64,000 bases of DNA from an uncultured Omnitrophica bacterium (lineage in GTDB: Bacteria; Omnitrophota; Gorgyraeia; JACQQV01): contig CAMTXH010000009.1 of assembly GCA_947085655.1 (NCBI GenBank), positions 3,738 to 67,737 on the forward strand. The letters are read 5' to 3'. Both the position numbers and the translations under genes were made by a program. A model generated the notes under the pieces. The model did no database searches, had not been told where the DNA came from, and was given only the letters and a program-made list of their open reading frames with translations. Below, one piece after another: positions 1,304-61,903 of the stretch (position 1 is its first letter; each line of letters begins with the position of its first letter).

Positions 1304-4144
1304 ATGCGGATTTTCTCGGGAAAAGCCGGGCCGCCCCAACGGGCGCCTGGCTTTTTCTTTCTTGCTTGTTTTCTCCTCAATGCGCTACAGGTTGAGCCGG
1401 TCTGGGCACTTCGCCCCACTTCCTCCGCTTCCCAGGACGGTTCCCGAAGAGCGATCCAAACGGCCCTTCAAGAAAATTCCCTCTCCGCCATTGACTCGTT
1501 TCCTGCAGAGGAGCGCACTTTTTTAGAAACCCTTCAAAGACACCTCGCCACGCGTCCCATCGTTTCACCCATTCCCGGAGAAGAGGAGGCATCCATCAAA
1601 GCCGGATCAGCAATCCTTCTCCGTTTTTACAACGGAGGATGGCAGCTGTTTCTTGTCAAGCGGAAGGCCGAAGCGCGCCGTTATCCAGGGTTTTGGGTTT
1701 TTCCGACGGAGATAAGAGAGCAAAACGGCCCCGGCGCTCAAGAGAAACCTTTGGAAGCGATCCTTCGGGGACTCCAGGAGGAGCTTCATCTTGAATTGAC
1801 ACCGGCTCATGTCATAGGGCGGATCGGAAAATATTTAACCGCTGATAAAAAGGGGGTTGTTTCCCCCATCCTTTTTCTGGTTTCCGAGGAGGAATCTCGA
1901 GAAATAAAGGTGGATCCTTCGGAAAACGAAATGGGCCAATGGGCACCGGTCTCTTTATTTTTAAACGGAAAGGTTCGTCAGGAAAATTTCCTTCCCGAAG
2001 CGGAGTTTGGTTCATCCGCAAGATTCGGTCCGGTAAGTGCTGCGGTCGATTTTTCGAATGTCTTTCGAGAGGCGGGAAAGGAGGCGCTTCAGCCCCGCCT
2101 CGAATCGGTCGGCCGGGAACTTTTTGGACATCTGCGGAGGGATGCTTTTTTGCAAAAAATCAATCACCCGCAAGATGCCTGGCGTGATGCCTTCGTGCAG
2201 GTTGGCATGAAAGAGGGTTTAAGGGATGGCACGCTCGGTTTCCTGGCAGAATATCCGGCCCTTCGGACCCCGGAGCGGCTTGAGGAAGCGCTCGAACGAC
2301 ATTTTCCGAAAAATGAACTTCCCAAGGGATTCGCTTCTGCCTTATGGTTTTTGGGACATATCCCTTCCAGAGCAAGACTCGGCCTTACAGATATACCAGT
2401 CCAGTTTGTTGGACGCCGTTTCATTGCCGGTGAAACCTCTGAAAAAATCCTTCCCCGGCTGAAACGGCTTCGACGTCAGGGTGTCACTTTCACGCTCGAC
2501 CCTGTGGGAGAGGCGGTCAGGGATGAGGCGGATGCCAAAGAAAACTTTGCTGCGAACCTCCTCCTCTTTGATGCGCTGGATCAGGCGACAAAAAACTGGC
2601 GGTGGGATGATTTTAAGGATATTCCTTACATGTCCCATGTGTCCATCAAATTGAGTTCATTGATTCCCACGTTTGACCGGGAGCATAAGGAGGAGTTGAA
2701 ACGCCGCCTCCGACGGCTGATGCGATTTGCGAGGACAAAAGGCATTTTCATTCGTATTGATATGGAGGAATATCAGGTCAAGGATCTGACCCTTGACATT
2801 TTTACGGAACTTCTCGATGAAGAAGAATTTCTCCGCTACGAGGGACTCGGGATTGTGGTGCAGGCGTATCTCAAGGATTCTCCGAAGGATGCGACCTCGC
2901 TCATCGAATTTGCGAGGCGGCGGAAGGAAAGGGGAGGATGGCGCACCCCGATTCGTCTTGTGAAGGGGGCCTATCCGGATCAGGATAGACTTCACCGGTG
3001 GGATGAAAAGTGGGAAACCGATGAACATTACGAGACGCTTTCCCATCTTCTTCTCGAAAACGTCGATGCCATTCTTCCCGCCTTTGGGACCCATAATATC
3101 CGATCCATCTCGGCTGTTTTGGCCTACGCCCGTTTTCTGGGGGTGCCGAAGGAGGCCTTTGAGTTTCAGTTTCTTTACGGAATGGGGGAACCGATCCAGC
3201 ATGCTTTGGTGCGCGCCGGTTACCGCGTCCGTCTCTATACTCCTTTTGGGCACCTCGAAAGGGCGATCCCTTATCTGGTCCGGCGGTTGATCGAGAACAG
3301 TTCCCAAATTTCGTTTGTCCGCCAGACCCAAAGCGCCGAATACGGTTTGGATACCCTGCTCCTTCCACCGCGGGAATTTGCGGAGATTGTCCAAAGCAAC
3401 TCCCGAGACGGCGCGGAGCGGTTTGGAAGGACCGAGCAACATCTGGGCGTTGTGGTAACGCTCACAGACCCGGAGGTGGAATTCGTCCGTACGTTTATTC
3501 TGATCGTGATGGCGCTTTTGGAGCATCTGGAGGAAATGGACCTGACCCATCTTCTCGATAACCCCCAAGCCCTTCCGGCAGGCGTCCATTTCAAATCCTT
3601 GCGGGAAATTGAACTGGTGGGCCCTTCAGACGGATATCTGGAGAATGCCCTCACGGGACTGCTTAAGTCTGCGGAGAAAATCGGGATTCATGGGGCGCGC
3701 ATCCGGGAGACAGAAAAGCAAACAAGGTATCGGCTCCTTCCGAACCCGACCCTTCATCAGGTATTGGAGGGGGCAACGACAGGACGTCTTCCGGAGGGAA
3801 CGGTCGCGGTATCTTATGGGCGGTTACGACCGCCTGTCCGGAGTCAAATAGACAAGATTGCCGATGCTCTTTTTGAGAACTATGAACCATCCCTTGCGCG
3901 GCATCAAGGAGCGCTTTGGCACCCTCTGGTCACACGGGAAATCCTGGCGGAGGTTTCCCGCAGAAATATCGAGAAAACAAAAGGCGCCCGGCTTTTGGAG
4001 GCCTTTCTGGGCATCGACTATCCGGTTGCGGACGCGTATGTCCAAAGCGTTCCGGATGCGCATGCCAGAGACGGCGCCGCCAAGGCCCAGCCCTTTTTTA
4101 GACAAATCCCTTCCCATGCCCTAGAGCCGACGCTCTACCCTTAA
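1304..4144 (+). CDS. NUDIX hydrolase / proline dehydrogenase (PRODH) fusion protein with an uncharacterised ~250-aa C-terminal region
   Basis: Nudix box near aa 100-190 (GFWVFPTE...EKPLEAILRGLQEELHLEL fits GX5EX7REUXEEXGU); PutA-type PRODH motifs at aa ~380-700 (RLVKGAY, LYGMGE, YLVRRLIENSSQ); no P5C-dehydrogenase domain follows. Confidence 0.7.
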   Translation: MRIFSGKAGPPQRAPGFFFLACFLLNALQVEPVWALRPTSSASQDGSRRAIQTALQENSLSAIDSFPAEERTFLETLQRHLATRPIVSPIPGEEEASIKAGSAILLRFYNGGWQLFLVKRKAEARRYPGFWVFPTEIREQNGPGAQEKPLEAILRGLQEELHLELTPAHVIGRIGKYLTADKKGVVSPILFLVSEEESREIKVDPSENEMGQWAPVSLFLNGKVRQENFLPEAEFGSSARFGPVSAAVDFSNVFREAGKEALQPRLESVGRELFGHLRRDAFLQKINHPQDAWRDAFVQVGMKEGLRDGTLGFLAEYPALRTPERLEEALERHFPKNELPKGFASALWFLGHIPSRARLGLTDIPVQFVGRRFIAGETSEKILPRLKRLRRQGVTFTLDPVGEAVRDEADAKENFAANLLLFDALDQATKNWRWDDFKDIPYMSHVSIKLSSLIPTFDREHKEELKRRLRRLMRFARTKGIFIRIDMEEYQVKDLTLDIFTELLDEEEFLRYEGLGIVVQAYLKDSPKDATSLIEFARRRKERGGWRTPIRLVKGAYPDQDRLHRWDEKWETDEHYETLSHLLLENVDAILPAFGTHNIRSISAVLAYARFLGVPKEAFEFQFLYGMGEPIQHALVRAGYRVRLYTPFGHLERAIPYLVRRLIENSSQISFVRQTQSAEYGLDTLLLPPREFAEIVQSNSRDGAERFGRTEQHLGVVVTLTDPEVEFVRTFILIVMALLEHLEEMDLTHLLDNPQALPAGVHFKSLREIELVGPSDGYLENALTGLLKSAEKIGIHGARIRETEKQTRYRLLPNPTLHQVLEGATTGRLPEGTVAVSYGRLRPPVRSQIDKIADALFENYEPSLARHQGALWHPLVTREILAEVSRRNIEKTKGARLLEAFLGIDYPVADAYVQSVPDAHARDGAAKAQPFFRQIPSHALEPTLYP

Positions 4145-4537: not shown

Positions 4538-6010
4538 ATGGATATCCGGTCCCACAATCCGGACGATGCGGCCACCTACCTTCTTGCGGCAAAATCCTTC
4601 CTTTCGGGAAAAGGGTTCGGCGTTGATTACGCGGACCAATTCGTCCCTAATATTGCACAGGGACCTCTGTTTCCGCTTCTTTTGACCCCTGTGGTTAGTC
4701 TCTTCGGATTCCATTTCCTTTCCCTCAAACTCTATGTCATTTTCCTTTCGCTCGGTGCCTGCCTTGCGGCTTATTTCTTTTTCCGAACGTATCTGAACTC
4801 AAGGGAGGAGGCGCTTTTGGCCCTTTTGCTCTTTGCGGGCTCGCCTATCATCTATAGTCTGAGTCATGAGATCCTCTCGGAGACGCTGTTTATCGCCTTT
4901 TTGCTTTTGACCGTCTGGACGTGGGATCAAGTCTTGTGGGGGAAGGGGTCGAAACACCTAACCTGGGTAGCCCCGTTTTTTGCGGCGGCTGCCTTTTATA
5001 CAAGGCCGATGGGTTTAGCAGTTTTGTTCGGAGGGTGGGCGCTTTTGCTCCATCCTTCCTACCGGAACAAAAAGGTCTTTAAGCGCCTTATTCTTCTGAC
5101 CCTCTTCATGATGATTGTCATCGGACCCTGGTTTTACCGTGCCTATACCGTGGAAAGCATCGGCTGGCTGGGACAGGACCCTTTTCACTTTTTTCGATAC
5201 CGGAAACCTGACCTGACGCTCGGCGCTCCCTTGGGCATTGCCGATCTGTTCATCCGGTTCAGACAGAACCTCACCTGGGGCATTATTCCGAATATCGGTT
5301 CGCTCCTTTTCGCCCCTTTTTACCTGATCGTCGAAAGCCGGGCTTGCCTGATCGGATCCCTTCCGCTTGCCGGATGGGTGTTATGGCGGTGGGCATCCGC
5401 TTTTTACCGAAATCCCACCTTCATGGAAGGGGTGCTGTTGATCTGGGCTGGGGTCCTTCTTTTGTTTACTCAAGGATACGCTCTCCGGTATCTGGTTCCT
5501 GTTTTTCCCTTCCTTATTCTCTATATGATTCGATTCGGCCGGGAATATTTCTCCAGGAATCTTCGGCGTATTCTCGCCACATTCCTTGTGATGGCTTCAA
5601 TCGGGACAATGTTTCTCCATGCACGCGATCTCCAGGCGAACCCTTATGGGACCCCTGTCCAAAAGGCCTATGTGGCGGCAGGAGAGTGGGCGAAGGCGCA
5701 CCTTGGAAAAGAGGCGACCTACTTTGCGGCAATGCCTCACCGGTGGCAGGTCCTTTCTCAGGGGCGGGCCTACGCTCTGACAGCGGAGAATCTGGCGTGG
5801 ATCCTTCAAGGAAAGGGCCCCGAATACCTCCTAACATTCAGGGACCCTGACTCCATTTTTAACTATGACCTAAAAAGTGTCGAGTTTTATCATCCTTCCG
5901 ATACAGCAAAGGTTTCCAAGTACGTTCAATCCCACCCAAGACGCTTCCGTGGGGTCTATCAAAACTCCCTCTTTGCCATCTATCAGCGGAAACCCCCAAA
6001 ATCCCGGTAA
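4538..6010 (+). CDS. GT-C family integral-membrane glycosyltransferase (ArnT/PMT-like, 4-amino-arabinose/mannosyl-transferase fold)
   Basis: 490 aa, ~10 predicted TM helices, N-terminal region (LLAAKSFLSGKGFG...DYADQFV) typical of ArnT/PMT GT-C enzymes; large C-terminal periplasmic domain. Confidence 0.55.
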   Translation: MDIRSHNPDDAATYLLAAKSFLSGKGFGVDYADQFVPNIAQGPLFPLLLTPVVSLFGFHFLSLKLYVIFLSLGACLAAYFFFRTYLNSREEALLALLLFAGSPIIYSLSHEILSETLFIAFLLLTVWTWDQVLWGKGSKHLTWVAPFFAAAAFYTRPMGLAVLFGGWALLLHPSYRNKKVFKRLILLTLFMMIVIGPWFYRAYTVESIGWLGQDPFHFFRYRKPDLTLGAPLGIADLFIRFRQNLTWGIIPNIGSLLFAPFYLIVESRACLIGSLPLAGWVLWRWASAFYRNPTFMEGVLLIWAGVLLLFTQGYALRYLVPVFPFLILYMIRFGREYFSRNLRRILATFLVMASIGTMFLHARDLQANPYGTPVQKAYVAAGEWAKAHLGKEATYFAAMPHRWQVLSQGRAYALTAENLAWILQGKGPEYLLTFRDPDSIFNYDLKSVEFYHPSDTAKVSKYVQSHPRRFRGVYQNSLFAIYQRKPPKSR

Positions 6011-6236
6011 CTGTCCAATAAATTCAACACCTTGTCCCCGGAATACAACGTATTAGACATCGATTCATAGTCAGGGATTGTCCTAGACAATCTTGTACAG
6101 TCCTTTGTTGTCCGAACTTTTACTTTTTAAAAAAGGTTTATTAACAACTTATTTGTTTTTAATAGGTTGTGAACAACTTTTTCAGTAAAGAAACACTTTG
6201 AAAAAAATAACGGCGTTTTCCGGTTGTTGTACAATT

Positions 6237-6252
6237 TGGCACAGAACTTGCG
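6237..6252 (+). promoter_or_regulatory. sigma-54 (RpoN) -24/-12 promoter TGGCAC-N5-TTGC
   Basis: TGGCACagaacTTGCg at 6237-6252 in a 340-bp AT-rich intergenic region; GG/GC spacing identical to consensus; ~100 nt upstream of the MerR-like gene and the EPS super-operon. Confidence 0.5.
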
Positions 6253-6349
6253 TAAAAACAGAAACTATCTCTCTTATTCAAGGAAGGGGTCTTTTTGAGG
6301 ATGGACCTTCGTTTACATCACTGATAAAGGCAAAAGAAGGAGGTAGCAG

Positions 6350-6532
6350 GTGAACGGAAGAATGACCATCACAGAAATGGCGAGAAAGGTCGGGATTACG
6401 CCGAAGACGCTCATGCGATGGGAAAAATTGGGAAAAATCAAAAGATCCAAGCGGGACTGGCGCGGCTGGCGCTTCTATGAAGACAACGACCTGCTTGAGA
6501 TCAAGCGCTTTTACGAGACGATTTACGAATAG
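6350..6532 (+). CDS. MerR-family helix-turn-helix DNA-binding protein (HTH-only, 60 aa)
   Basis: SD AAGGAGG 7 nt upstream; sequence ITEMARKVGITPKTLMRWEKLGKI...RDWRGWRFYEDNDLLEIKRF matches MerR N-terminal HTH pattern (R..GYR.Y...DL..L..I). Confidence 0.55.
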   Translation: MNGRMTITEMARKVGITPKTLMRWEKLGKIKRSKRDWRGWRFYEDNDLLEIKRFYETIYE

Positions 6533-6575
6533 CGCGGCCAAATCCATTTATTTCAGGAAAGGGAGGTTTTAAGAA

Positions 6576-7415
6576 ATGAAGAAGGCAAAAAAATGGATCG
6601 TTATCGGTCTGGCCGGGCTTGCCCTTGCCCTACCGATCGCTGCTCAGGCAGAAGAAGAAGACGCTGAGGCTGCAGACGCTGAAGCCGCACTGGTAGACAA
6701 GCCGACACTTGTCGATATCCCGACCCCTCCAGTTCACTACGTCGAGGGCATTCAGGAGCCGACGTCCTTTCCGACGGTCGGGACGATCGGTATTTCTTCT
6801 ATTGAACCGGTAAGATACACCCTCGGTCCCGAGGATGCCATCGCCATCGAGGTGCGGCGCCATCCTGAATTCAGCGGCGCCTACATGATTAACTCCGAGG
6901 GAAAAATCCAGTACAAGTACGTCGGGGACGTTTACGTAAACGGCCTGACCAAAACCGAGGTCAAAGATAAAATCACCCAAGTCCTCTCTGCGTACTTGGT
7001 TGACCCGTCGGTTGAAGTGACCATCGCCGAATACCGGAGCAAAGTCTTTTATGTCATCGGCGAGGTCGGCCGGCCCGGCAAATATTACATGATGGCGGAT
7101 GAGATTCCGATCCGGGAGGCGGCGATTCAGGCGGGACTTCCCCAACTGAGCGCCTCTGCCAAAAAGGCAAGACTCATTACGCCCGATAAGCACGGAAAAC
7201 CAAAGGCGAAAAAGATCGATTTGGAAAAAATACTTTATGAAGGCGATTTGAGAGAGAACGTGATGATGAGACCGGGCGATGTGCTGTATGTGCCGGCGAC
7301 GCTCATCACCAAGTTTATGCGCAAGATCGCCCCTGTGGCCCAGCCGGTTCAGTCGGCGGTGAGTGCCCAGGATTCGTTCTATCGCATCGGGAATCCCCCC
7401 AACTACAATCGATAA
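6576..7415 (+). CDS. polysaccharide export outer-membrane/periplasmic protein (Wza/EpsE-like; Poly_export + SLBB domains)
   Basis: Signal peptide (LAGLALALPIAAQA); Poly_export/SLBB signature (LGPEDAIAIEV...INSEGKIQYKYVGDVYVNGLTKTEV...YVIGEVGRPGKYYM). Confidence 0.85.
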   Translation: MKKAKKWIVIGLAGLALALPIAAQAEEEDAEAADAEAALVDKPTLVDIPTPPVHYVEGIQEPTSFPTVGTIGISSIEPVRYTLGPEDAIAIEVRRHPEFSGAYMINSEGKIQYKYVGDVYVNGLTKTEVKDKITQVLSAYLVDPSVEVTIAEYRSKVFYVIGEVGRPGKYYMMADEIPIREAAIQAGLPQLSASAKKARLITPDKHGKPKAKKIDLEKILYEGDLRENVMMRPGDVLYVPATLITKFMRKIAPVAQPVQSAVSAQDSFYRIGNPPNYNR

Positions 7416-7441
7416 TTGAGAAAGGATAAAAGGATAACACC

Positions 7442-8755
7442 ATGGAAAGACCGATGGACGCACCGACACGATCCCCCCTTCACTATGTGAAGATTTTCTT
7501 CAAACGGAAACAGATGATTCTGTTGCCGATGCTGGCCGGACTCCTCATCGGAACCATCTCGGGATTTATGCTTCCCAGAACCTATGAGTCTTCCACGGTG
7601 ATCCTGGTGGAAGAGGGGCGGGTCATCAACCCGTTGATTGAGGGACTGGCTGTTTCAACGAGTTTGGCCGACCGGCTTCGGACGCTTCGGGAACAGATCC
7701 TCAGCTGGGACCGGCTGGTCCAGTTGACGAAACGTCTCAACCTCGCCAAGGGAATCAAATCCCAGTATGACTACGAGAAGCTCATCGAAACCCTCCGCGC
7801 CAAAATCGTCGTGGGTCTCCGGGGCCCCAACCTGATCCTCATTTCCTATCAGCACAGCGACCCGGTTCAGACCCAACTCGTGGTCAAAACGGTGACGGAT
7901 ATCTTCGTTGAGGAAAATATCGCCATGCAGAATCGGGAGACCGAGTCGGCCATTGAATTCATCAATGATCAACTGACGGTTTACAAACGGAAGATCAAGG
8001 AATCGGAGCTGGCGGCGCGGGAGGATGAACTGCGTAATCTCCTGATTGACTCCACGGAACTCCATCCCCGTGTCAAGGAACTCCGGATGGAGATTGCAAA
8101 GATCCGGGAGGAACTGGAGTCGGGCGAGTTTGAGGTGAAGACCAAAGAGCAGGTTTCGAGCCCCCTCGTTTCGCAGATCGAGGAGGAGATCAGCCGGATT
8201 CAGTCGGCCCCGGGAGGGGTCGTCGCCACGCCGGGGAAACCGATCCAGGGGCTTCCGGATGAAAAAATCTACAACCTTCTCCTTTTGGACCAGATGAGCA
8301 GCGTCTTTGCGCGGGACATGGCGGTGAACGAGCAGATTTACAACATGCTTCTCCAGCGACTTGAGACGGCAAAGATCACCCGGCGGCTCGAGGCCTCGCA
8401 GGAGGGAACCCGTTACACCGTCTTGGACCCGGCGCGGCTTCCGTTAAGACCGATTAAGCCGAATAAACTCCTCACCGCTTTCCTCGGCCTTTTTGTGGGT
8501 GTCATTGTCGGCATCGGGTTTGTCTTCTCGGTTGAGTTCTTTGATCATTCTTTCCTGAGCGTTGAAGAGGCGAAGGCGTTTCTCCCCGGACCGGTCTTGG
8601 GGGCAATTTCGAAAATCACCACTGAAGATGAACTGGACGAGATGCGCCGCCGGAAGCGGTTCCTCGGCGTTCCGCATATTGTCTCAAACTGCTTTACCTT
8701 CTTCCTCGGCGCCTTCTCGGCATTAAGGGGAAAAGAAAGAAGCGTTAAGGCCTGA
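7442..8755 (+). CDS. polysaccharide chain-length determinant protein (Wzz/GumC family; PEP-CTERM-locus EpsF-like)
   Basis: N-terminal TM (LLPMLAGLLIGTISGFML) + long coiled-coil periplasmic region + C-terminal TM (LLTAFLGLFVGVIVGIGFVF), the Wzz topology. Confidence 0.8.
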   Translation: MERPMDAPTRSPLHYVKIFFKRKQMILLPMLAGLLIGTISGFMLPRTYESSTVILVEEGRVINPLIEGLAVSTSLADRLRTLREQILSWDRLVQLTKRLNLAKGIKSQYDYEKLIETLRAKIVVGLRGPNLILISYQHSDPVQTQLVVKTVTDIFVEENIAMQNRETESAIEFINDQLTVYKRKIKESELAAREDELRNLLIDSTELHPRVKELRMEIAKIREELESGEFEVKTKEQVSSPLVSQIEEEISRIQSAPGGVVATPGKPIQGLPDEKIYNLLLLDQMSSVFARDMAVNEQIYNMLLQRLETAKITRRLEASQEGTRYTVLDPARLPLRPIKPNKLLTAFLGLFVGVIVGIGFVFSVEFFDHSFLSVEEAKAFLPGPVLGAISKITTEDELDEMRRRKRFLGVPHIVSNCFTFFLGAFSALRGKERSVKA

Positions 8756-8757
8756 CC

Positions 8758-9615
8758 ATGTACGAGAAATTTTACGGCTTCAAGGAAAATCCCTTCCGGA
8801 TGACGCCGGATTCGAAGTTTTTCTATCCGAGCGCCAAGCATACGGAGGCCCTCTCGAGTCTTCTCTATACCATTCAGCAGCGGAAAGGGTTTGTGGTAAT
8901 CACGGGAGAGATTGGGGCGGGCAAGACCACCGTCTGTCAGGCCCTGATCCGAAAACTGGACTTAAACACCAGGATCGCGCGGATTTTCAACACCCATCTG
9001 ACCAGTCGGGAGCTTTTGATCGCCATCCTTGAGGACCTGGAAGTGACTTACAAGCCGGGAACCAAGGGACGGCTCCTTTCCCAACTGTATGATTACCTGA
9101 TTCACCAGGCCTTCAGCGGAACCAATGTCGTCATCCTCATCGACGAGGCGCAGAATCTGACCCCCACGGTCCTCGAAGAGGTCCGGATGCTCTCTAATTT
9201 GGAGACGGAAAAGGAGAAACTGATTCAGATTGTGCTGGTAGGACAGCCGCAGCTGAAAACGAAGCTCCAGCTCCCGAAACTGGAACAGCTCCGGCAGCGG
9301 GTTGTCCTCCATTATCATTTGGAACCCTTGAACGTGCAGGAAACGAAGGAGTATGTCCGGCACCGCCTCTCCATCGTGGGCGGGAAACCGGAACTTTTTG
9401 AAGAGGAGGCGCTTGACCGGGTCTATGCCTTTTCAAGAGGAGTCCCCCGGCTCGTCAATTTAATCTGTGACAGCGCACTTCTTTCTGGCTTTCTCTACAA
9501 CGCACTGACCGTGACCCGGAAGATCCTGGATGAAGTGATTCAGGAGGCACCGTTCCAGAGAGGAAAGGCGTCGGAGATGATTGAACAAGGAGGAACGATC
9601 CAGTGGGCAAAATGA
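8758..9615 (+). CDS. ExeA/GspA-like AAA ATPase of PEP-CTERM EPS loci (putative secretion ATPase)
   Basis: Walker A GEIGAGKTT, Walker B ILIDEAQN; N-terminal YGFKENPF motif typical of the ExeA-like family found next to Wzz/BY-kinase genes in exosortase loci. Confidence 0.8.
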   Translation: MYEKFYGFKENPFRMTPDSKFFYPSAKHTEALSSLLYTIQQRKGFVVITGEIGAGKTTVCQALIRKLDLNTRIARIFNTHLTSRELLIAILEDLEVTYKPGTKGRLLSQLYDYLIHQAFSGTNVVILIDEAQNLTPTVLEEVRMLSNLETEKEKLIQIVLVGQPQLKTKLQLPKLEQLRQRVVLHYHLEPLNVQETKEYVRHRLSIVGGKPELFEEEALDRVYAFSRGVPRLVNLICDSALLSGFLYNALTVTRKILDEVIQEAPFQRGKASEMIEQGGTIQWAK

Positions 9616-10427
9616 CGGAAATTCTCAAAAAAATTGCGGAAGAGAGACTTTCGCACATCGAACGGAAGGCGGAGGCGACACCGGGTTACATTCTGACCCA
9701 GCGGGCCGACTCGAAAATCGACCCCCGAATCGTCACCTTTCATGAACCGAATTCGCCGATTGCGGAACAGTATAAGATGCTTCGGACCAATATCCTCACG
9801 ATATCGGCCAAGCGGCATCTCAAGTCATTCGTGGTTTCAAGCACGATTCACGGCGAAGGAAAAACCGTGACTTCCGCCAATTTGGCATTTGTACTGGCGG
9901 AAGATCTGAATGCCAAATCGGTTCTTCTGGTGGATGCGGATATGAGGAAGGGGCGCGTCTCCCGGCTTTTGGGTTTGGGACCGCGAAAGGGGCTTTCAGA
10001 CATCCTATCGAACGGGACCCCTTTTCACGAGGGGTTGGTGGATATCGGCGTGAAGAATCTGACGGTCCTTCCAAGCGGCATGGTTCCCACGAATCCGTCC
10101 GAACTTCTCGGCTCGACCAAGATGAACCGATTCATTCAGGAACTTCGGGGACGCTTTGACATGATCGTGTTCGATACCCCTCCTGTCATGAGCGTGACCG
10201 ATCCCGGCGTGCTGGGTGCGCAGTGCGACGGCGTGTTCATGATCGTTCAGGCGGGACGGACGCAGCGGACGAGCGTCCAGCATGCGGAGCATCTCCTCAC
10301 CCACGCACACGCCAAGATTCTCGGATATATCGTCACCAACGTCGAATACCATCTCCCCGAATACATCTACCGATACGTCGAAAGAGAACCCTATGCGGAA
10401 CCGACCATTGTTCCTGCGGCCTCATAG
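9603..10427 (+). CDS. BY-kinase (Wzc C-terminal-type tyrosine autokinase; EpsG-like)
   Basis: Walker A HGEGKT, A' VLLVDADMRKG, B MIVFDTPP; C-terminal tyrosine cluster EYHLPEYIYRYVEREPYAE. Confidence 0.8.
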   Translation: MGKMTEILKKIAEERLSHIERKAEATPGYILTQRADSKIDPRIVTFHEPNSPIAEQYKMLRTNILTISAKRHLKSFVVSSTIHGEGKTVTSANLAFVLAEDLNAKSVLLVDADMRKGRVSRLLGLGPRKGLSDILSNGTPFHEGLVDIGVKNLTVLPSGMVPTNPSELLGSTKMNRFIQELRGRFDMIVFDTPPVMSVTDPGVLGAQCDGVFMIVQAGRTQRTSVQHAEHLLTHAHAKILGYIVTNVEYHLPEYIYRYVEREPYAEPTIVPAAS

Positions 10428-10454: not shown

Positions 10455-11945
10455 ATGGCAGCGTTTCCGACGCTTGACGAACCGATTACAGAATTAACAG
10501 AATTAAGAGAGAAGACCCTCTCCGGCATGAAATGGGTTTTTCTCTCCAGTTTCAGCCAGAGGGTTATCGGTCTGGTCACGACCATTTTCCTCGCCCGCCT
10601 CCTCATGCCTTCCGAATTCGGACTCTTTGCCCTCGCTTTTGTCATGATCGACGGGTTCGGGCTTTTCAAGAGTCTCGGTTTTGACACGGCGCTTCTCCGC
10701 TGGCAGGGAAAGGATGCGGAGGAAGCGGCCGACACCGCCTTCCTTCTGGTCCCCTTTTTCGGAATGACGCTCACCCTCACTCTCCATTTCTTCGCCCCTT
10801 ACGGCGCATCCCTTCTCGGAAACCCGGAGGTGACACCGGTCATCCGGATGCTCGCCTTCATTTTTATCTTCAGTTGTCTTGCCCAGGTGCCGGGCGCGCT
10901 CATCCAAAAACGCTTGGATTTCTGGCAAAAGGCGACTCCCGAAATTGCAGCCGGTATCCTTTATTCCGTCTCGGCCGTAACGTTCGCCTTTCGGGGGTTC
11001 GGCGTCTGGAGTCTGGTTTATGCGTATCTTTTGAAAACAATCCTTTACATGTCGATGATCTGGATCTTTGCCGGCTGGAGGCCCCGCTTCCGCTTCCGTC
11101 CGCATTTGGCGGCGGAGATGTTTCAATTCGGGAAATTCATCTTTCTCGGGAGTCTTCTGGGATTTCTGCGGAATAATCTTGATAATTTCGTCGTCGGAAA
11201 AATGATCGGATTGAGCGCACTCGGTTATTACGCAATCGCCTTTAATCTCGCTGCCTTTCTCTCACAGCACCTTATTACCCGGATGCAGGGGGTCTTTTTT
11301 CCCGTTTTTTCCAAAATCCAGGAGGATACGGAGGTTCTGCGGCGCGGTTTTCTGAAGTCGTTCAAAATGACTTCGATCGTTGCAATTCCATTTAGCCTCT
11401 TTCTGCTGATCGCAGGGCCGAATTTCCTGGAGACGGTCTATGGCAGCAAATGGGCCCCTGCCGGACCGGTTCTCCGGATCCTCGCTTTGGCGGGGCTCTT
11501 CCGGGCCCTCGGCGGAATCATGAGCCCCGTCTTTCTGGCGAAGGGAAGATCACGCCTTGATTTTGTGTTGAATATCCTTCAGGCAATTCTTTTCTTCCTC
11601 TTAATGATTCCGGCAGCGCACTTTTTCGGACTGGAGGGGGTGGGGGTATCGGTTTTAGTCTCCTCCCTTGCCGCTTTTGTCCTCGGGGCGGTGCGGCTTC
11701 GGCAGATTATCCAAATTTCCATCAAGCAGATGCTGTTACTGATGAAACCGGCCTTTGTCGGTTCAGGGGTGATGCTGGCCGTCTTTGGCGCTCTTTCGGC
11801 AGGGAGATCTTTGCTTGGGTATCTCACCGCCCCCGCGGCCGTAACCGCCTTCATCGTTGTCTGCGGTTTGTCCGGCATCGTTTACTTTTTATCGGTGTTG
11901 GTGCTTGATCGGGATGTACGGATCGAAGTGAGGAGAATTGTCTGA
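10455..11945 (+). CDS. Wzx-type polysaccharide flippase (MOP/Polysacc_synt family)
   Basis: 496 aa, ~12-14 TM helices, N-terminal motif (KWVFLSSFSQRVIGLVTTIFLARLL) typical of Wzx flippases. Confidence 0.8.
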   Translation: MAAFPTLDEPITELTELREKTLSGMKWVFLSSFSQRVIGLVTTIFLARLLMPSEFGLFALAFVMIDGFGLFKSLGFDTALLRWQGKDAEEAADTAFLLVPFFGMTLTLTLHFFAPYGASLLGNPEVTPVIRMLAFIFIFSCLAQVPGALIQKRLDFWQKATPEIAAGILYSVSAVTFAFRGFGVWSLVYAYLLKTILYMSMIWIFAGWRPRFRFRPHLAAEMFQFGKFIFLGSLLGFLRNNLDNFVVGKMIGLSALGYYAIAFNLAAFLSQHLITRMQGVFFPVFSKIQEDTEVLRRGFLKSFKMTSIVAIPFSLFLLIAGPNFLETVYGSKWAPAGPVLRILALAGLFRALGGIMSPVFLAKGRSRLDFVLNILQAILFFLLMIPAAHFFGLEGVGVSVLVSSLAAFVLGAVRLRQIIQISIKQMLLLMKPAFVGSGVMLAVFGALSAGRSLLGYLTAPAAVTAFIVVCGLSGIVYFLSVLVLDRDVRIEVRRIV

Positions 11946-12373
11946 TGCAGCCGACGGTGAGCGTGATTCTACCCACTTACGACAGACCCCGTTTTTTGAA
12001 GGAAGCGATCCAGAGCGTTAAAGATCAGACGTTTTCCGACTGGGAACTGATTGTGGTGGACAATGCCTCGGGGCCGGAAACGAAAAAGGTCGTTGATTCA
12101 TTTTCACCCGATCCACGGATCTGTTATCTGCGGCGCAACAGACCGGGAACGGCCGCAACGGCCCGCAACCAAGGGATAACCGAAGCCAGAGGACGTTATC
12201 TCGCTTTTTTGGATGACGACGAAGTGTGTTGTGATTCGAAACGGATGTGGGTTCGATACCACTATAGCCGCACCTCACCCAATTTTTCGATTCGGAGACG
12301 TCTGCGTCGCTGGTGGGAGAAGGGCACCTCGCACATCCTGAAAGGAGCAAGGACCTTATGCCGCGCCACCTGA
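11945..12373 (+). pseudogene. GT2 glycosyltransferase N-terminal fragment (142 aa), apparently truncated after the DXD motif
   Basis: VSVILPTYDRPRFL...LIVVDNAS...FLDDDEV is a normal GT2 N-terminus, but the ORF ends ~40 aa later in non-GT2-like sequence and overlaps the next gene; GT2 enzymes are normally 250-330 aa; no alternative frame continues the domain. Confidence 0.45.
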
Positions 12374-14589
12374 ATCATCCGACCGCGGCGATCTTGACCT
12401 TAGGCGCCCCGCAGAGTCTTTGCATCGCTCGGAGTCTCGGTCGTCGGGGAATTCCGGTCATCGGATTGGATGGGAATCCCCGGAGCATGGGGGTTTTTTC
12501 ACGATACTGCCACCCTGTCCTTTTGCCGGCTCTGGGAAAAAATCCGGAAGCATGGCTTGAAACCCTTGTTTCGGAAGGGAAAAAAAGAGAAACGCCCGCT
12601 GTTTTATTTCCCTGCAACGACGCAAGTGTCCTTTGGGTTGCGGAGCACCGGGAGGCCCTTGAGACCTATTACCGTTTCCGAATTTCCCCTCTTGAGGTCG
12701 TTCGGCTCATTTTGAATAAACCCCGGATGACCGCGCATGCCAAATCACTCGGTCTTTCAGTTCCGCGCCATCTCATGCTGGAGCGAAAAGAGGATCTGGA
12801 GAGGGTGGCGGGGGAAATCGGTTTTCCCTGCGGCATCAAGCCGGTTTACAGTCATGAATGGAAACACCATTTCTCAACCGACAAACTGCTCTCCGTTTCC
12901 TCAACAACGGAGTTAGAAAAAGAGTATTCCAAACTGGAGCGGACCGCCCTGAAATTTTTTGTGACGGAGCTGATCCCCGGGGAGGATCGGGACCTCTTTG
13001 GGCTGTATACGCATCTCGATCGGAACGGAAAACCGCTCTATCTTTACACCTGCCGGAAACTCCGGCAATATCCGCCCTATTTCGGAAACGGATCGCTCCG
13101 CGAAGGGATTGACGAACCGGCCGTCTCGGCGCTTGGGTTCTCCCTTCTGGCGAAAATCGGGTGCAGGGGACTTGCGCATGTCGAGTTTAAATGGGACCGG
13201 CGGGACGAAAGTTGGAAACTCATCGAGGTCAATCCCCGTGCCACCATCGCCTTGCCCCTCGTGGCGGGAAGCGGAATCGACGCACCGTATCTCGCATACC
13301 GGGATGCCTTGGATCAACCGGTAGAGCCGCAGGAGGTCAAAACCTATCGGAGGAAACTTTTGTATTTGGTGGAGGACATCGATGCCTTCCGTGCCTACCA
13401 CAGGGAAGGGAAACTCTCCTGGGGCGGATGGCTTCGGTCCCTGTGGGGGGCGAATGTCTTCGGGATTTTCGCCTGGGATGACCCGATGCCGTTTCTCCGA
13501 TTGGTTGCGTATCGAATGGGGCGGGCCGCGCGGAGTCTCCTCAAGAGGTGGAGCCCGGAGAGTATTCACCGCCCCCGACATCTCCTTTTTCGACGGTTCA
13601 TCAAGGTCTGTTTGTCCTACTGCCTCTTCTATAGCGGGATTCTATGGATCCGCCGCTTCCAAAGACAGAAGGAAGGGGAGTTCCGGATTCTTGTGTATCA
13701 CCATATCACGGAAAAAGAAGATCATTCGGGTCTGCCGGCGTCCGTCTTCAAGAAACAGATTGCCTGGATTCAGAAACATTATGCGGTCATATCCCTCAGT
13801 GAACTCCTTCTTCGAAAGAAACAAAGTCTTCCGTTACCCGAGCGGGCGATGGCGATTACCTTTGACGACGGGTACAGTGACTTCGTAACCAGGGCTTATC
13901 CGGTTTTGAAGGAGGCGGGACTTTCGGCGACGCTTTTTGTGGTGATTGACTGCCTGGAACAGAAACCCCTTTGGACCGAGTCTTTAAAAGTCTGGTTTGA
14001 CCTTACTTCCCGCAAACGGCTTGATTTTTCCTTAAACGGCGAGACATACTCCTTGCCGCTTGGAAATGACCGTGAAAAAAGAGAAGCGCGGGAAACACTC
14101 AAGGGCAAACTGAAGCGGGTGAAAAACGGTGAGCGGCTCATTCTGATGGAAAAAATAAAAAAGGAACTTTTGGGCGAAAAAGAAGACGGATTCCCGACCG
14201 GGATGCTGATTTGGGAAGATATCTTGAAACTTTCGGAGGACGGTGTCGAAGTTGGTGCACATACGTTGAGCCATCCGATCCTGACGCAGATTTCGGAAAA
14301 GGAGGCCCGGCACGAGATTACAGAGTCCAAGAAAAGACTCGAGGCGCGTCTTGGGAAACCGGTACAGATTTTTTCTTACCCGAACGGAGAGATCGGCGAT
14401 TTCAACGAGTCGGTGGAGCGGATTGTCAGGGACGCCGGGTTTTTAGGTGCCTGCACCGCCATTGAAGGAAAAAATGATGCTTCGAGCAATCCGTTTACCC
14501 TGAGGCGGCTCGGGACATGGGAGCGGTCGCTCCCTGTGTTTGCCTGCATGCTTGAGGGCTGCTTTGACCTGTTTCAAAGGAGACCATGA
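12358..14589 (+). CDS. ATP-grasp domain / NodB-type polysaccharide deacetylase fusion protein
   Basis: Likely start ATG 12358 (SD AAAGGAG 10 nt upstream; ORF-track start 12313 is GTG). N-terminal ~400 aa is an ATP-grasp fold (IGFPCGIKPVYSH...LIEVNPR); central TM segment; C-terminal NodB motifs (ITFDDGYSDF, HTLSHPIL, IFSYPNGE). Confidence 0.7.
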   Translation: MPRHLNHPTAAILTLGAPQSLCIARSLGRRGIPVIGLDGNPRSMGVFSRYCHPVLLPALGKNPEAWLETLVSEGKKRETPAVLFPCNDASVLWVAEHREALETYYRFRISPLEVVRLILNKPRMTAHAKSLGLSVPRHLMLERKEDLERVAGEIGFPCGIKPVYSHEWKHHFSTDKLLSVSSTTELEKEYSKLERTALKFFVTELIPGEDRDLFGLYTHLDRNGKPLYLYTCRKLRQYPPYFGNGSLREGIDEPAVSALGFSLLAKIGCRGLAHVEFKWDRRDESWKLIEVNPRATIALPLVAGSGIDAPYLAYRDALDQPVEPQEVKTYRRKLLYLVEDIDAFRAYHREGKLSWGGWLRSLWGANVFGIFAWDDPMPFLRLVAYRMGRAARSLLKRWSPESIHRPRHLLFRRFIKVCLSYCLFYSGILWIRRFQRQKEGEFRILVYHHITEKEDHSGLPASVFKKQIAWIQKHYAVISLSELLLRKKQSLPLPERAMAITFDDGYSDFVTRAYPVLKEAGLSATLFVVIDCLEQKPLWTESLKVWFDLTSRKRLDFSLNGETYSLPLGNDREKREARETLKGKLKRVKNGERLILMEKIKKELLGEKEDGFPTGMLIWEDILKLSEDGVEVGAHTLSHPILTQISEKEARHEITESKKRLEARLGKPVQIFSYPNGEIGDFNESVERIVRDAGFLGACTAIEGKNDASSNPFTLRRLGTWERSLPVFACMLEGCFDLFQRRP

Positions 14590-40700: not shown

Positions 40701-41830
40701 CCACTCTTTTCTGGTTTTCGGTTTTTATTCTGATTTACATCTACATCGGATATCCGGCTCTTTTGGGCGTTGGGTCCCGGTTTTTCCGGAAGCCGGTCCG
40801 GAAGGGGGCCGTTTTCCCGACCGTCTCGGTCCTCCTTTCCGCTTATAACGAGGAAAAGGTTATCCAGCGAAAGATGGAAAATCTCCTCTCCCTCGATTAT
40901 CCGGATGAAAAGATTGAAATTCTGGCCGGCTCCGACGGCTCGACGGACGAAACACCCTCGATCCTCCGGTCCTACGCGGGGGAACATGTTCATCTGGTCA
41001 TCCAAACCGAAAGAAAAGGGAAGGCCAAGATGCTGAACGCCCTTTTTCAAAAGGCAAAAGGGGAGATTCTGGTGTTGACGGACGCCCGCCAGCGGATCGA
41101 CCGGCAGGCGATCCGGAGACTTGTCCGGAATTTCAACGACCCGAAAGTCGGCTGCGCAAGCGGCGAACTGGTCCTCAAAGAAAACGGCAATTCCGTCGGG
41201 AAAGGGATCGGCCTTTACTGGAACTACGAGAAATTCATCCGAAAGACCGAGAGCGAAATCGACTCCGTCATCGGGGCGACGGGTGCTTTGTACGCGATCC
41301 GGAGGTCCGTCTGGCGTCCGATTCCGGAGGAGACGATTTTGGACGATCTCTATCTTCCGATGCAGGCGGTCTCCCAGGGATTCCGGACCGTCTTCGACGG
41401 CGAGGCGCGGGTGTATGACGTGACTTCTCTCACCCCCAGGCAGGAATACGAACGGAAGGTGCGGACGTTGGCGGGGAATTACCAAAGTTTCGTCCAGTTT
41501 GCATCTCTTTTTAACCCTTTTCGGAGCCGCGTCGCGCTTCAATTCATCTCGCATAAACTTCTCCGAATCCTGGCGCCCTTTTTCCTGGCGACTCTTTTGG
41601 CGGCAAACGGGTTTCTATGGGAGGACCTTTTCTACCGAATTTTCTTCTTCATGCAGTCGGCCTTTTATGCGATGGCGGCAGTTGGGGCGTTTGCGCCGGT
41701 GAAGCGGATTCGCTTTTTTGCCGCACCGTATGTCTTTTGCCTGCTGAATTTCTCCGCGCTGGCCGGACTGGTCCGGTATCTTTCGGGAAGACAGCATGTC
41801 ACCTGGCAGAAAGGGGGTCTTTTGTCGTGA
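40697..41830 (+). CDS. membrane-bound GT2 glycosyltransferase
   Basis: N-terminal TM, VSVLLSAYNEEKVI...ILAGSDGSTDET...LTDARQ, C-terminal TM helices. Confidence 0.8.
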   Translation: MTTLFWFSVFILIYIYIGYPALLGVGSRFFRKPVRKGAVFPTVSVLLSAYNEEKVIQRKMENLLSLDYPDEKIEILAGSDGSTDETPSILRSYAGEHVHLVIQTERKGKAKMLNALFQKAKGEILVLTDARQRIDRQAIRRLVRNFNDPKVGCASGELVLKENGNSVGKGIGLYWNYEKFIRKTESEIDSVIGATGALYAIRRSVWRPIPEETILDDLYLPMQAVSQGFRTVFDGEARVYDVTSLTPRQEYERKVRTLAGNYQSFVQFASLFNPFRSRVALQFISHKLLRILAPFFLATLLAANGFLWEDLFYRIFFFMQSAFYAMAAVGAFAPVKRIRFFAAPYVFCLLNFSALAGLVRYLSGRQHVTWQKGGLLS

Positions 41831-42621
41831 AACTCGCTGCGATCGGAATTCTTTTCCTCTTTGCCTATTTTCCGACGCTCGTTTGGATGGCGGACCGTTG
41901 GATGGCGGCCGATTCCTATTACGGGCACGGTTTTCTGATTCCGCTTGTGAGCGCCTACCTTGTTTGGCGCAAGCGGAAGGAAATTGCGCAACTTCCGAAG
42001 GAATCTTCAAGCTGGGGGCTTGTTCTCCTTGTCGTCGGGCTTCTCATTCATCTGGCGAGCGCTATGGTCAAGGTCTATTTCACCTCCGGTTTCTCGATCC
42101 TGATTTCCGTTTCGGGGCTGGTTCTCTATCTGGGGGGAAAACGGCTGCTCCGGGCGGTCGGGTTTCCGATTTTCATGCTCTTTTTCATGATTCCCTTTCC
42201 GCTCGTTGTCATCGGAACGGCGGTCCTCCGGTTGAAACTGTTTGCGGCGATGTGCGCCACCGTGATTCTTCATCTGATCGGGATGCCGGCAGTCCAGCAG
42301 GGAAGCACCATCTTTATGCGGAACGCCACCGTTCTGGTGGATGATCCGTGCAGCGGACTCCGTTCGCTCCTTTCGCTTCTGACACTCGGGGTTTTGTTTG
42401 CCTATCTGAAGCAGGCCCGACTTTCAAGACGGGTCCTCTTTTTCCTTTCTTCCATCCCGATCGCGATTTTTGCAAATGTCATCCGGATTGTGATGCTGGC
42501 CGGGATCGCCGACATTTACGGGGTGGATGTGGCATTGAAATTCTTCCATGACTTCTCCGGTTTTGTGGTATTCGGGCTTGCCCTCGGGGGATTGTCACTC
42601 GTCGGGAGAGTTCTTCAATGA
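41827..42621 (+). CDS. epsH: exosortase (EpsH/Xrt family transpeptidase)
   Basis: Likely GTG start at 41827 overlapping upstream TGA (ORF-track start 41617 is an upstream extension); 8 TM helices; invariant exosortase motifs DDPCSGLRSL (Cys) and FANVIRIVML (Asn/Arg). Confidence 0.8.
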   Translation: MKLAAIGILFLFAYFPTLVWMADRWMAADSYYGHGFLIPLVSAYLVWRKRKEIAQLPKESSSWGLVLLVVGLLIHLASAMVKVYFTSGFSILISVSGLVLYLGGKRLLRAVGFPIFMLFFMIPFPLVVIGTAVLRLKLFAAMCATVILHLIGMPAVQQGSTIFMRNATVLVDDPCSGLRSLLSLLTLGVLFAYLKQARLSRRVLFFLSSIPIAIFANVIRIVMLAGIADIYGVDVALKFFHDFSGFVVFGLALGGLSLVGRVLQ

Positions 42622-43250: not shown

Positions 43251-43436
43251 TCTTCCGTGTTGTATTTAGGGTCAACATGTCGAATTGCTTAAACAGATTA
43301 AATCTGGACTGTCCTGGATAACCCTGGACAAACCCGGACAGTCTCTGAATAGAGGGAAAATTAATGCATAACTTATTTCATTATAAAGAGTTACAGACAT
43401 GACAAATAGAAAAATATTAATTCCTTTACGGGAGGT

Positions 43437-43452
43437 TGGCATGGAGATTGCG
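43437..43452 (+). promoter_or_regulatory. sigma-54 (RpoN) -24/-12 promoter TGGCAT-N5-TTGC
   Basis: TGGCATggagaTTGCg at 43437-43452; consensus spacing; ~60 nt upstream of ATG 43514; preceded at 43304-43343 by four CTGGAC-like repeats with 10-11-bp phasing. Confidence 0.55.
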
Positions 43453-44332: not shown

Positions 44333-44845
44333 ATGTCCCGGTACCGTGGCCTGGGGAGTCTGAGTTCAACCGCTTTTAAGGCGCTCATCATTAATACACT
44401 CTTTCTCGGCATTGCCCTTGCGGCGGGAAGCGGCCTTTTTTACGTTTATCACGATAAAAATTCGCCGGAGAGTTTTTACAAGAATGAAGGATACACCCTT
44501 CTCACGGGCGAAATGACCAAGAAAGACAAAGCCGTTTGGGAGGGGCAGGAAAATATCTTCGGCGCCACAACGTATCTTGCAACCGGTGACAATTTGCGGA
44601 ACCCGAATTTTGACAATGCGGAGACAAGGGAATTCATCCAACGCCAGGATACCCGGCATGCAACGCAGGTCCCGATTAAGGCGATTCAATTTTTCGGATC
44701 CTCAATGACGGTCACCTTCGAAAACGGTTGCGAGGTGACCCGGACATGGGATATCGCCCGGAGCCCCGGGAAGATCTATCCAACTCGTAAAATCACGGAG
44801 GAGTGCGATGATGCAAAACGACAGGAACTTCCGCCTTATTCATAA
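44333..44845 (+). CDS. membrane-anchored hypothetical protein
   Basis: 170 aa; TAAATG overlap with upstream gene; single N-terminal TM (ALIINTLFLGIALAAGSGLFYVY). Confidence 0.5.
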   Translation: MSRYRGLGSLSSTAFKALIINTLFLGIALAAGSGLFYVYHDKNSPESFYKNEGYTLLTGEMTKKDKAVWEGQENIFGATTYLATGDNLRNPNFDNAETREFIQRQDTRHATQVPIKAIQFFGSSMTVTFENGCEVTRTWDIARSPGKIYPTRKITEECDDAKRQELPPYS

Positions 44846-45590: not shown

Positions 45591-45613
45591 AAAACAAGGA
45601 GGAGGTAAGTAGC

Positions 45614-46297: not shown

Positions 46298-46314
46298 GCA
46301 GACGGTTTGTGAGA

Positions 46315-46342
46315 CCCGCCTTTCGTGCATCGAAAGGCGGGG
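46315..46342 (+). other. perfect 11-bp stem / 5-nt loop hairpin without U-tract between PEP-CTERM genes
   Basis: CCCGCCTTTCG tgcat CGAAAGGCGGG; no poly-U on either strand. Confidence 0.4.
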
Positions 46343-46361
46343 AAAGGACAAATCTGCAGAG

Positions 46362-46703: not shown

Positions 46704-46879
46704 GGTAGATAAAATCTACCTCCTCCTTGTGGCTTGTGTTCCAGAACCCATGGCGCAACTCATCTCGGCTCTGGAAAAAGGATAGAGTGGGAGTAGGAAA
46801 TAACCTATTCAAAATAAAAGAGTTATAGAAGTGAGGTAGGTGAGTTGCGTTAATGGGGGAACGCAGGAATGGTTTGACA

Positions 46880-61690: not shown

Positions 61691-61903
61691 GACTTTGCGT
61701 CCCCGGATTACTCCGGGTTTGCCCCCCTCGAAAACTCTTCGAAGGGCCCTATTTAGGGTTTATCGAATCCACACTTAAAGTATACCATAGAAAGGGGAGA
61801 CCTGTCTGAATTCTTTAATTTATAATTAGTTGAAAATAAAAGAGTTATGAAAAATATCATTTTTTCCCTGACCCACCGGGAAATCGGTTAAAATAGAAGG
61901 GAC

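Follow-up and report, generated by a model that had tools for sequence, protein, structure and literature searches.

The DNA analyzed here (the window, 64 kb from an uncultured member of the Omnitrophota) contains an intergenic gap of 339 bp at 6011-6349, bounded by the stop codon of a PMT_2-type gene at 6010 and by a GTG start codon at 6350. An initial sequence-only reading had described this gap as an AT-rich region of about 340 bp set in DNA of about 60% GC. The length and the AT-richness hold (GC 0.36, with flanks of 0.47-0.60), but the surrounding DNA is about 53% GC. From 6350 to 43250 all genes lie on the + strand and no gap exceeds ~45 nt, in keeping with the contiguous downstream gene run that had been proposed. 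The run opens with a gene for a 60-aa MerR-type winged helix-turn-helix (wHTH) protein and an export cassette, and it continues with a flippase, many glycosyltransferases, amidotransferases, deacetylases, a Wzy-type polymerase, an exosortase (41617-42621; TIGR02602 score 186, cut-off 105.6) and EpsI (90, cut-off 42.8); the ATPase in the cassette is an exosortase-system ATPase. A 263-bp gap with a second sigma-54 site follows, and then a priming glycosylphosphotransferase and three PEP-CTERM proteins. Conservation in the first gap was read from an alignment, A3, of eight close relatives with 80-86% protein identity (the clade); locus L083, which has a GIY-YIG-like ORF inserted upstream of the MerR-like gene, was left unaligned. 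The features of the gap and of the genes next to it are listed here.

6011-6030, + strand: site I, CTGTCCAATAAATTCAACAC, TGT-N12-ACA, candidate activator (EBP) site from the clade alignment
6032-6051, + strand: site II, TTGTCCCCGGAATACAACGT, TGT-N12-ACG, with TGT in 8/8 and ACGT in 6/8 clade members
6069-6103, + strand: TGTCY/RGACA repeat module AGTCAgggatTGTCCtAGACAatctTGTACagtcc, containing dyad 1 (6077-6091)
6123-6135, no strand: AT-tract palindrome CTTTTTAAAAAAG, kept as CCTTTTaAAAAG in the clade alignment
6145-6169, no strand: long dyad CAACT-N15-GGTTG, a form of TAACT-N15-AGTTA, with AACTTATTT and GTT invariant in the clade alignment
6227-6234, no strand: dyad 3, TTGTACAA, abutting the -24 box and absent from all 7 close relatives
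6237-6252, + strand: predicted sigma-54 (-24/-12) promoter 1, TGGCACagaacTTGCg, a conserved consensus match
6263-6349, + strand: predicted leader of 87 nt, with the RBS AAGGAGG at 6337-6343
6350-6532, + strand: 60-aa MerR-type wHTH protein, first gene of the operon, lacking the dimerization helix (BldC-like architecture)
6576-10427, + strand: Wza-like export protein, chain-length determinant, AAA ATPase and Tyr autokinase (NCBIfam and Pfam matches)

The product of the first gene matches Pfam MerR (PF00376, E 1.8e-11, residues 6-43), so that the MerR-like HTH gene called from the sequence alone is confirmed. An AF2 model of the protein (pLDDT 88.5) has the topology H-H-E-E-H, and a Foldseek search against the PDB, which gave weak E-values (>= 0.04) for this very small domain, was used solely to confirm the MerR wHTH fold. 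We found the family at 111 places in GTDB species genomes and on 67 metagenome contigs, nearly all labeled Candidatus Omnitrophota, and the signature KRDWRGWRFY is invariant in it. The gene is followed by an export gene in 134 loci, a chain-length determinant in 117, the ATPase in 86 and the Tyr kinase in 82, and the cassette is always on the same strand as the MerR-like gene.

Within the gap, TGGCACagaacTTGC at 6237-6251 matches TGGCAC-N5-TTGC at 10 of 10 positions and is the sole exact match on either strand of the 64 kb. Its GG and GC are 12 nt apart, which is the consensus spacing, and its -24 box lies 113 nt before the GTG at 6350 and faces that gene. Related loci were scanned for TGGCAC-N5-TTGC at 8/10 or better, with the GG and GC exact, no more than 400 nt upstream of the MerR-like gene. 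Among the 142 loci having at least 200 nt of upstream sequence, mostly Candidatus Omnitrophota metagenome-assembled genomes (MAGs), 130 gave a match, compared with a background of 0.059 sites per 400 nt per strand in the remainder of those loci, and the distance from promoter to start codon is typically 70-130 nt. In the clade, TTGGCAyAGAACTTGC is kept in 8/8 members. This conservation is comparative evidence at its strongest short of a mapped start. We conclude that 6237-6252 is very likely a genuine sigma-54 promoter: a consensus, conserved predicted binding site for RNA polymerase with sigma-54 is shown at this position, and transcription is predicted to start near 6263, as judged from the position of the -12 GC. 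The promoter of exact consensus spacing named in the sequence-only reading is thus borne out, and the RpoN-site scan added one further good site (9/10), at 43437.

It could be argued that this match is fortuitous, that transcription of the operon comes from a sigma-70 promoter or runs in from the gene upstream, and that the dyads are chance palindromes. Dyad counts in the gap are indeed at chance level, no terminator-like site was found between the upstream gene and the gap, and a strong sigma-70-type promoter precedes the repeat module in about 12 distant loci. This explanation is nevertheless strongly disfavored, and we regard it as extremely improbable, given the conservation in 130/142 loci over a 6% background, the retention of the promoter block while upstream neighbor genes vary among close relatives, and a sigma-70 consensus scan of the gap that returned no site.

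The three short dyads that had been proposed as activator or repressor sites are, like the promoter, present in the sequence where they were placed. Palindromes with arms of at least 4 and spacers of at most 4 number 15 in the gap, against 10.2 +/- 4.3 expected from dinucleotide shuffles (P = 0.15), and an arm of at least 6 is seen in 49% of the shuffles. Significance by count alone was rejected, and with counts at chance the significance of a dyad can come from conservation only. By that measure the proposal holds for the first of the three dyads and fails for the other two. Dyad 1, ATTGTCctaGACAAT at 6077-6091, extends as a perfect dyad to GATTGTC/GACAATC (6076-6092); its core TGTC-N3-GACA is invariant in 8/8 clade members while the 3-nt center varies freely, but it belongs to the larger TGTCY/RGACA module rather than standing as a site by itself. 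Dyad 2, GTTGTgaACAAC at 6166-6177, is not conserved as drawn: only its GTT is invariant, because this is part of the right arm of the longer conserved dyad YAACT-N15-AGTTR that it overlaps, and among relatives dyad 2 retains its left arm while its right arm varies, so that the local palindrome is rebuilt in other forms or lost. Dyad 3 is kept in 0/7 close relatives, with tttgnTTCAAc at its position in 5/8 clade members, and as a feature specific to this genome it is treated as chance or lineage-specific. For annotation, the lesson is that the promoter call was sound and that short palindromes in AT-rich gaps are acceptable only if conserved.

After the promoter, the module at 6069-6103 is the best-conserved block in the gap. 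Its clade consensus, aGTCyaaGAgTGTCnnnGACAATCTTGTACAGTC, is near-invariant over 35 bp, with TC.TGTAC..TC invariant, and its homolog in many distant loci, at -170 to -130, is TGTCCgggtaTGTCCgGGACAgtaaTGTCT, with the window form aGTCAgggatTGTCCtAGACAatctTGTAC in register. TGTCYNRGACA and RGACA-N5-RGACA each occur once in the window, and each of these single copies lies ~100-160 bp upstream of one sigma-54 promoter. It is highly probable, on this comparative evidence, that the promoter is real and that dyad 1 forms part of a conserved protein-binding module.

Loci were anchored on the -24 box for positional profiling of the elements. GGACA and AGACA together are enriched 4.7-fold around the promoter, equal to TGGCA itself, and they form two clusters, one of TGTCY followed by RGACA at -170 to -130 and one of coding-strand RGACA at +30 to +80. 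In the second arrangement, two to five RGACA-N5 repeats lie in the leader, between the -12 element and the RBS; the window's leader lacks such an array, unlike that of many relatives. Phased arrays number 110 in 1.15 Mb, 85 of them within 450 nt of a MerR-like start, and arrays of at least 3 repeats are in leaders in 32/34 cases. Neighboring repeats are spaced by exactly 10 bp in 106/140 pairs, which suggests that they share one side of the double helix.

Other polysaccharide operons, such as E. coli pga, are regulated through GGA-rich leaders, and by that precedent the RGACA repeats might act in RNA, for instance with the leader as the target of a CsrA-like protein or another protein that binds RNA. 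The strand of the leader arrays fits such a role, with 57/57 on the transcribed strand. Yet AGACA has no GGA and is found as often as GGACA; the strict 10-nt phasing (106/140) is helical; and in 39 loci, the window included, inverted copies lie upstream of the promoter and hence outside the mRNA. In the window itself an RNA element was rejected, since an Rfam scan of 5800-6800 at E <= 1 gave no match and shuffled sequences fold as well as the predicted leader does (z = -0.30). We consider action in RNA very unlikely, and read the repeats as DNA sites.

Profiling also brought out two dyads of other kinds in distant loci. ATGTT-N10-AACAT, a 20-bp dyad with the consensus ATGTTnATTnTTnTAAACAT, peaks at -140, where a 10-nt bin has 29 matches and 0.4 would be expected; smaller peaks lie at -230 and -160. 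It is present in 43/51 leader-array loci and 26/39 upstream-array loci, compared with 17% of shuffled regions; being kept wherever the arrays sit, it would be the constant, enhancer-like element and the arrays the movable one. TAACT-N15-AGTTA peaks at -70 to -61 (23 matches per bin against 0.4 expected), and the gap between its arms is 15 in 26/40 matches. At 2 mismatches, both dyads occur at chance frequency across the whole window and are meaningful by position and conservation only.

The window's clade has no good copy of ATGTT-N10-AACAT at the usual -135 position. Sites I and II at the head of the gap share the geometry of that dyad, and site II begins 21 bp, or two helical turns, after site I. 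The clade consensus of site I is yTGTYYAAaAAAnTnrACAy, with ACA in 7/7 and TGT in 5/7 sequences. Each site is 3 mismatches from the phylum consensus and is identified from 7-8 clade sequences, and for site I we infer the assignment on that account. These TGT-N12-AC(A/G) sites at 6011-6030 and 6032-6051 are the best activator-site candidates in the gap, and they fall just outside the 6060-6260 region to which attention had first been drawn. The TAACT-N15-AGTTA dyad is represented at 6145-6169 by a form in which T>C in the left arm is matched by A>G in the right, preserving the symmetry.

A classical NtrC/NifA-type promoter has enhancer dyads (for example TGT-N10-ACA), an IHF bend and then the -24/-12 element. 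The gap resembles this plan in having upstream dyads at 100-230 bp, two of which are offset by 21 bp, and in having an AT-rich region and a conserved element between these and a consensus -24/-12. It departs from it in the dyad geometry, here TGT-N12-ACA (ATGTT-N10-AACAT), in the additional repeat module, and in the intervening element, which is a symmetric 25-bp dyad and not the asymmetric IHF consensus.

The second good sigma-54 site, the only other one in the 64 kb, lies in the locus's other large intergenic gap and was compared between the window and four relatives, in which exosortase, EpsI, gap, priming transferase and PEP-CTERM genes are syntenic. The features of this part of the locus are as follows.

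43277-43296, + strand: ATGTCgaattgcttaAACAG, TGT-N12-ACA dyad, 2 mismatches from the consensus, TGT and ACA invariant in 5/5 clade members
43306-43340, + strand: four phased pentamers, GGACT, GGATA, GGACA and GGACA, with a 10-bp period, plus TGTCC at 43310-43314
43369-43393, no strand: TAACT-N15-AGTTA, exact match, kept in 5/5 clade members
43437-43451, + strand: predicted sigma-54 promoter 2, TGGCATggagaTTGC, 9/10 match, preceding the priming glycosyltransferase (43514) and PEP-CTERM genes
47804-48655, + strand: TPR protein, first of a trio at 47804-51252
48624-49865, + strand: histidine kinase, second of the trio
49828-51252, + strand: NtrC-type sigma-54 activator, third of the trio, with GAFTGA at residue 232, a REC domain and a C-terminal Fis-type HTH

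The three kinds of element found at promoter 1 recur at promoter 2, where GTTGGCAyGgA..TGC is kept in 5/5 clade members. At the position of the pentamers the relatives have TGTCC-N5-TGTCC...GACAG, and the window's repeats are GGACA-oriented in the same phase. The PEP-CTERM proteins downstream of this promoter (44808-46703) have visible PEP-CTERM tails.

The NtrC-type activator at 49828-51252 is a candidate for both promoters. It scores 478 bits with the NCBIfam AtoC model (cut-off 714), the highest score of any activator model, and 418 bits with PrsR TIGR02915 (cut-off 502.6), and the kinase scores 83.5 bits with TIGR02916 (cut-off 300). A gene for rpoN is not in the 64-kb window; the intact GAFTGA loop of the activator indicates that the organism uses sigma-54. 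It had been suggested that the entire locus may be controlled by RpoN and an enhancer-binding protein (EBP). Given the conserved promoter, the GAFTGA activator with its kinase, and promoter 2 with its like elements, such control is the best reading of the locus.

We considered two proteins as binders of the TGTCY/RGACA repeats. One is the sigma-54 activator itself, with the repeats, dyad 1 included, as its enhancer and the MerR-like protein doing something else. The distance of the module upstream of the -24 box, 135-170 bp, is that of a classical enhancer, and the phased array lies 97-131 bp upstream of promoter 2. Downstream enhancers for sigma-54 activators have precedent, for example Vibrio FlrC, and the leader arrays could accordingly be activator sites as well. 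Against this, 51 loci have repeats only in the leader (-12 to RBS), all on the coding strand, and 43 of these 51 keep a separate ATGTT-N10-AACAT dyad upstream. Direct repeats of 10 bp also misfit the two-fold symmetric Fis-type HTH dimers of NtrC-family activators, and the activator gene does not travel with the cassette: only 1 weak match to an activator gene adjoins it in ~150 loci, so that adjacency cannot identify the activator. Binding of the repeats by the activator is the main rival to the assignment that we prefer, and we think it rather unlikely.

The other candidate is the operon's own MerR-like protein, and we suggest, tentatively, that it could quite possibly be what binds the RGACA repeats. 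It is favored because the repeats and its gene are inherited together in every lineage while an activator is adjacent in one locus, and because it is a wHTH protein without a dimerization helix that has BldC among its best PDB profile matches (6amk and 6ama, E 3e-5, no better than those to other MerR N-domains). BldC of Streptomyces forms head-to-tail multimers on direct repeats and bends the DNA (PMC5859096), and since it accepts variable numbers of repeats in this way, the 10-bp phase and variable copy number seen here would suit a binder of its kind. Both proteins (PDB 6AMA and 6AMK for BldC) are MerR-type wHTH domains of 60-70 aa without the coiled-coil dimerization helix, they share 33-35% identity in structural alignment, and both go with direct repeats that vary in number and recur at about one helical turn, known here from the cis side only. 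The differences are also clear. BldC recognizes AATTxxxx(C) repeats at sigma-70 developmental promoters (PMC5859096), whereas the repeat here is yaRGACAtacy and is found at sigma-54 promoters of a polysaccharide locus, and the 60-aa protein scores 19.8 bits with the NCBIfam HTH_BldC model (NF033787), far below its cut-off of 77. The RGACA copies upstream of promoters are found facing either way, and strictly head-to-tail binding does not readily account for this. The DNA-contacting residues of the MerR-like protein and the RGACA motif are both invariant, and there is therefore no covariation linking them.

Taken together, the gap is probably the control region of a sigma-54-dependent operon that runs from the 60-aa MerR-type gene into the Wza, Wzz, ATPase and Tyr-kinase genes and, in all likelihood though less surely, into the rest of the exosortase/PEP-CTERM polysaccharide locus. 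In this model, an NtrC-type activator, most likely the one at 49828-51252 with its kinase, would bind the TGT-N12-AC(A/G) dyads at 6011-6051, where the two-turn offset between sites I and II would suit an assembling NtrC-type oligomer. The activator would contact the closed complex by DNA looping, aided by the AT tract and by the YAACT-N15-AGTTR dyad, which is placed where IHF-type bending sites usually lie. The module at 6069-6103 would bind a second factor, most parsimoniously the MerR-like protein as a phased multimer like BldC, feeding back on its own promoter. In leader-array lineages the MerR-like factor might act as an autorepressing roadblock, and in the window's architecture it might sit beside the enhancer and modulate activation. 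A bolder and still more tentative form of the idea, drawn from comparison of sequences, is that BldC-type 60-aa proteins polymerize on phased RGACA repeats and so gate the sigma-54 promoters of an exosortase polysaccharide system, with the repeats placed upstream or as a leader roadblock depending on the lineage. If this is true, promoter, repeats, mini-regulator and export genes would make up a self-contained, phylum-wide regulatory cassette; a BldC-like protein would be linked to sigma-54 control for the first time, and Omnitrophota would have their first described cis-regulatory code.

Several parts of this arrangement recall known systems. Sigma-54 has been described as a general controller of the cell exterior, including exopolysaccharide (Francke et al. 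2011, PMC3162934), and sigma-54 promoters before polysaccharide export and biosynthesis genes agree with that view; Omnitrophota and the present cassette lie outside that survey, as far as our literature search shows. Haft et al. 2006 (PMC1569441) predicted PrsK/PrsR/PrsT and a 17-nt motif 1 followed by a sigma-54 motif in the PEP-CTERM/EpsH system, a cis motif that they report before PEP-CTERM genes and only in Proteobacteria. The window is similar in that its polysaccharide locus includes an exosortase, EpsI and PEP-CTERM proteins, in that a long intergenic region contains a sigma-54 promoter preceded by a conserved motif, and in that a trio of TPR protein, histidine kinase and NtrC-type activator lies nearby. 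Promoter 2 lies ahead of PEP-CTERM genes in a genome with an exosortase, as in the PrsK/PrsR/PrsT system. The system here differs from theirs in its lineage, Omnitrophota; in the genes controlled, since promoter 1 heads the export operon and promoter 2 a priming transferase and PEP-CTERM genes; and in the addition of a MerR-like first gene, phased RGACA arrays and two dyad types. The activator and kinase also score below the PrsR and PrsK cut-offs (418 < 502.6 and 83.5 < 300). TTTACA, given in the same paper as the end of motif 1, ~63 nt upstream of the sigma-54 motif, is absent from 6140-6200 and 43340-43400.

Our literature search for Omnitrophota with PEP-CTERM, exosortase or sigma-54 returned nothing relevant, and the literature searched contained no description of a MerR-like first gene, phased RGACA repeats and the two dyad types. 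A sigma-54 promoter ahead of a polysaccharide locus is of an ordinary kind; here it comes with an architecture, conserved across the phylum, that is undescribed in that literature, and with a plausible new BldC-like partner. Omnitrophota are uncultured and often ultra-small, and their gene regulation is almost wholly uncharted. An architecture conserved in more than 100 MAGs, made up of a predicted sigma-54 promoter, an enhancer-like dyad, phased RGACA repeats and a bending-site-like dyad, offers a concrete handle on how surface polysaccharide production is switched in these bacteria, and it puts forward a BldC-like mini-MerR protein as a candidate new partner for sigma-54 promoters. With different motifs, it also carries the link between sigma-54 and PEP-CTERM, which was proposed in 2006 and confined to Proteobacteria, into a further phylum.

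The start codon of the MerR-like gene that heads the EPS operon is most likely GTG 6350, because a ribosome-binding site precedes it, the start region GTGAACGGAAGAATG (6350-6364 in the window) is invariant among relatives, and most of the MerR-like homologues begin with MNGRM. NCBI protein P0001, at 56 aa, begins instead at ATG 6362.

6337-6343, ribosome-binding site AAGGAGG, upstream of GTG 6350

Upstream of the same gene in about 12 distant loci, a strong sigma-70-type promoter, T(A/G)GACA-N17-TATAAT, was found directly 5′ of the TGTCC module; in L012, L014, L015, L017, L019, L023, L026, L029 and L061, approximately 175-205 nt separate it from the sigma-54 TGG further downstream. The -35 hexamer itself contains an RGACA pentamer, and these lineages may carry tandem sigma-70 and sigma-54 promoters with one common operator. 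No such promoter upstream of the TGTCC module is present in the window's clade. Additionally, a TCATAG variant repeat (gTCATAGtatTTCATAGACA) with a 10-nt period was often observed just 3′ of the promoter, in the leader regions of loci scored as lacking RGACA arrays (L001, L003, L008, L010 and L018), which suggests a drifted form of the RGACA-array operator. In L083 (region 975-1374), a close relative, a small GIY-YIG-like ORF is inserted directly 5′ of the MerR-like gene, and a search of up to 400 nt upstream of that gene recovered no sigma-54 site.

The 15-mer AAAATAAAAGAGTTA occurs in two exact intergenic copies in the window, against 0.11 expected, and both match the TAACT-N15-AGTTA dyad with one mismatch.

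46811-46825, copy 1, upstream of gene 46947
61833-61847, copy 2, upstream of hflX 61904

The dyad is positioned between the enhancer and the sigma-54 promoter, and the 15-mer may serve this genome as a promoter element or, more generally, as a site for an architectural protein.

Downstream of the priming glycosyltransferase lie three proteins with PEP-CTERM tails (e.g. IPEPSSLGLLGMGLLGLWKYRKK), and further on a tandem regulatory trio.

44808-45590, PEP-CTERM protein
45587-46297, PEP-CTERM protein
46362-46703, PEP-CTERM protein
47804-51252, TPR protein, histidine kinase and sigma-54 response regulator

The third PEP-CTERM protein is Gly-rich and lipoprotein-like and, at 113 aa, falls below the 140-aa ORF cut-off, so that it was seen only with a 30-aa cut-off. 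The trio parallels PrsT/PrsK/PrsR of proteobacterial PEP-CTERM systems in make-up, but all three members score under the NCBIfam cut-offs, and for this reason the trio is probably a divergent Omnitrophota counterpart.

Elsewhere in the window, a 142-aa family-2 glycosyltransferase fragment (11945-12373) shares its end with the first part of a 758-aa ORF (12313-14589) whose sole Pfam match is a C-terminal polysaccharide deacetylase domain; the overlap could reflect either a frameshift or the splitting of a fusion gene. In the upstream region lies a gene for a 946-aa fusion of NUDIX and proline dehydrogenase (1304-4144). In relatives, the NUDIX-containing gene of the corresponding region (L152:1-865; L153:1-802) has products of 1843 and 2960 aa, giant proteins of unusual architecture, and Pro_dh was also recorded in the 2960-aa protein.
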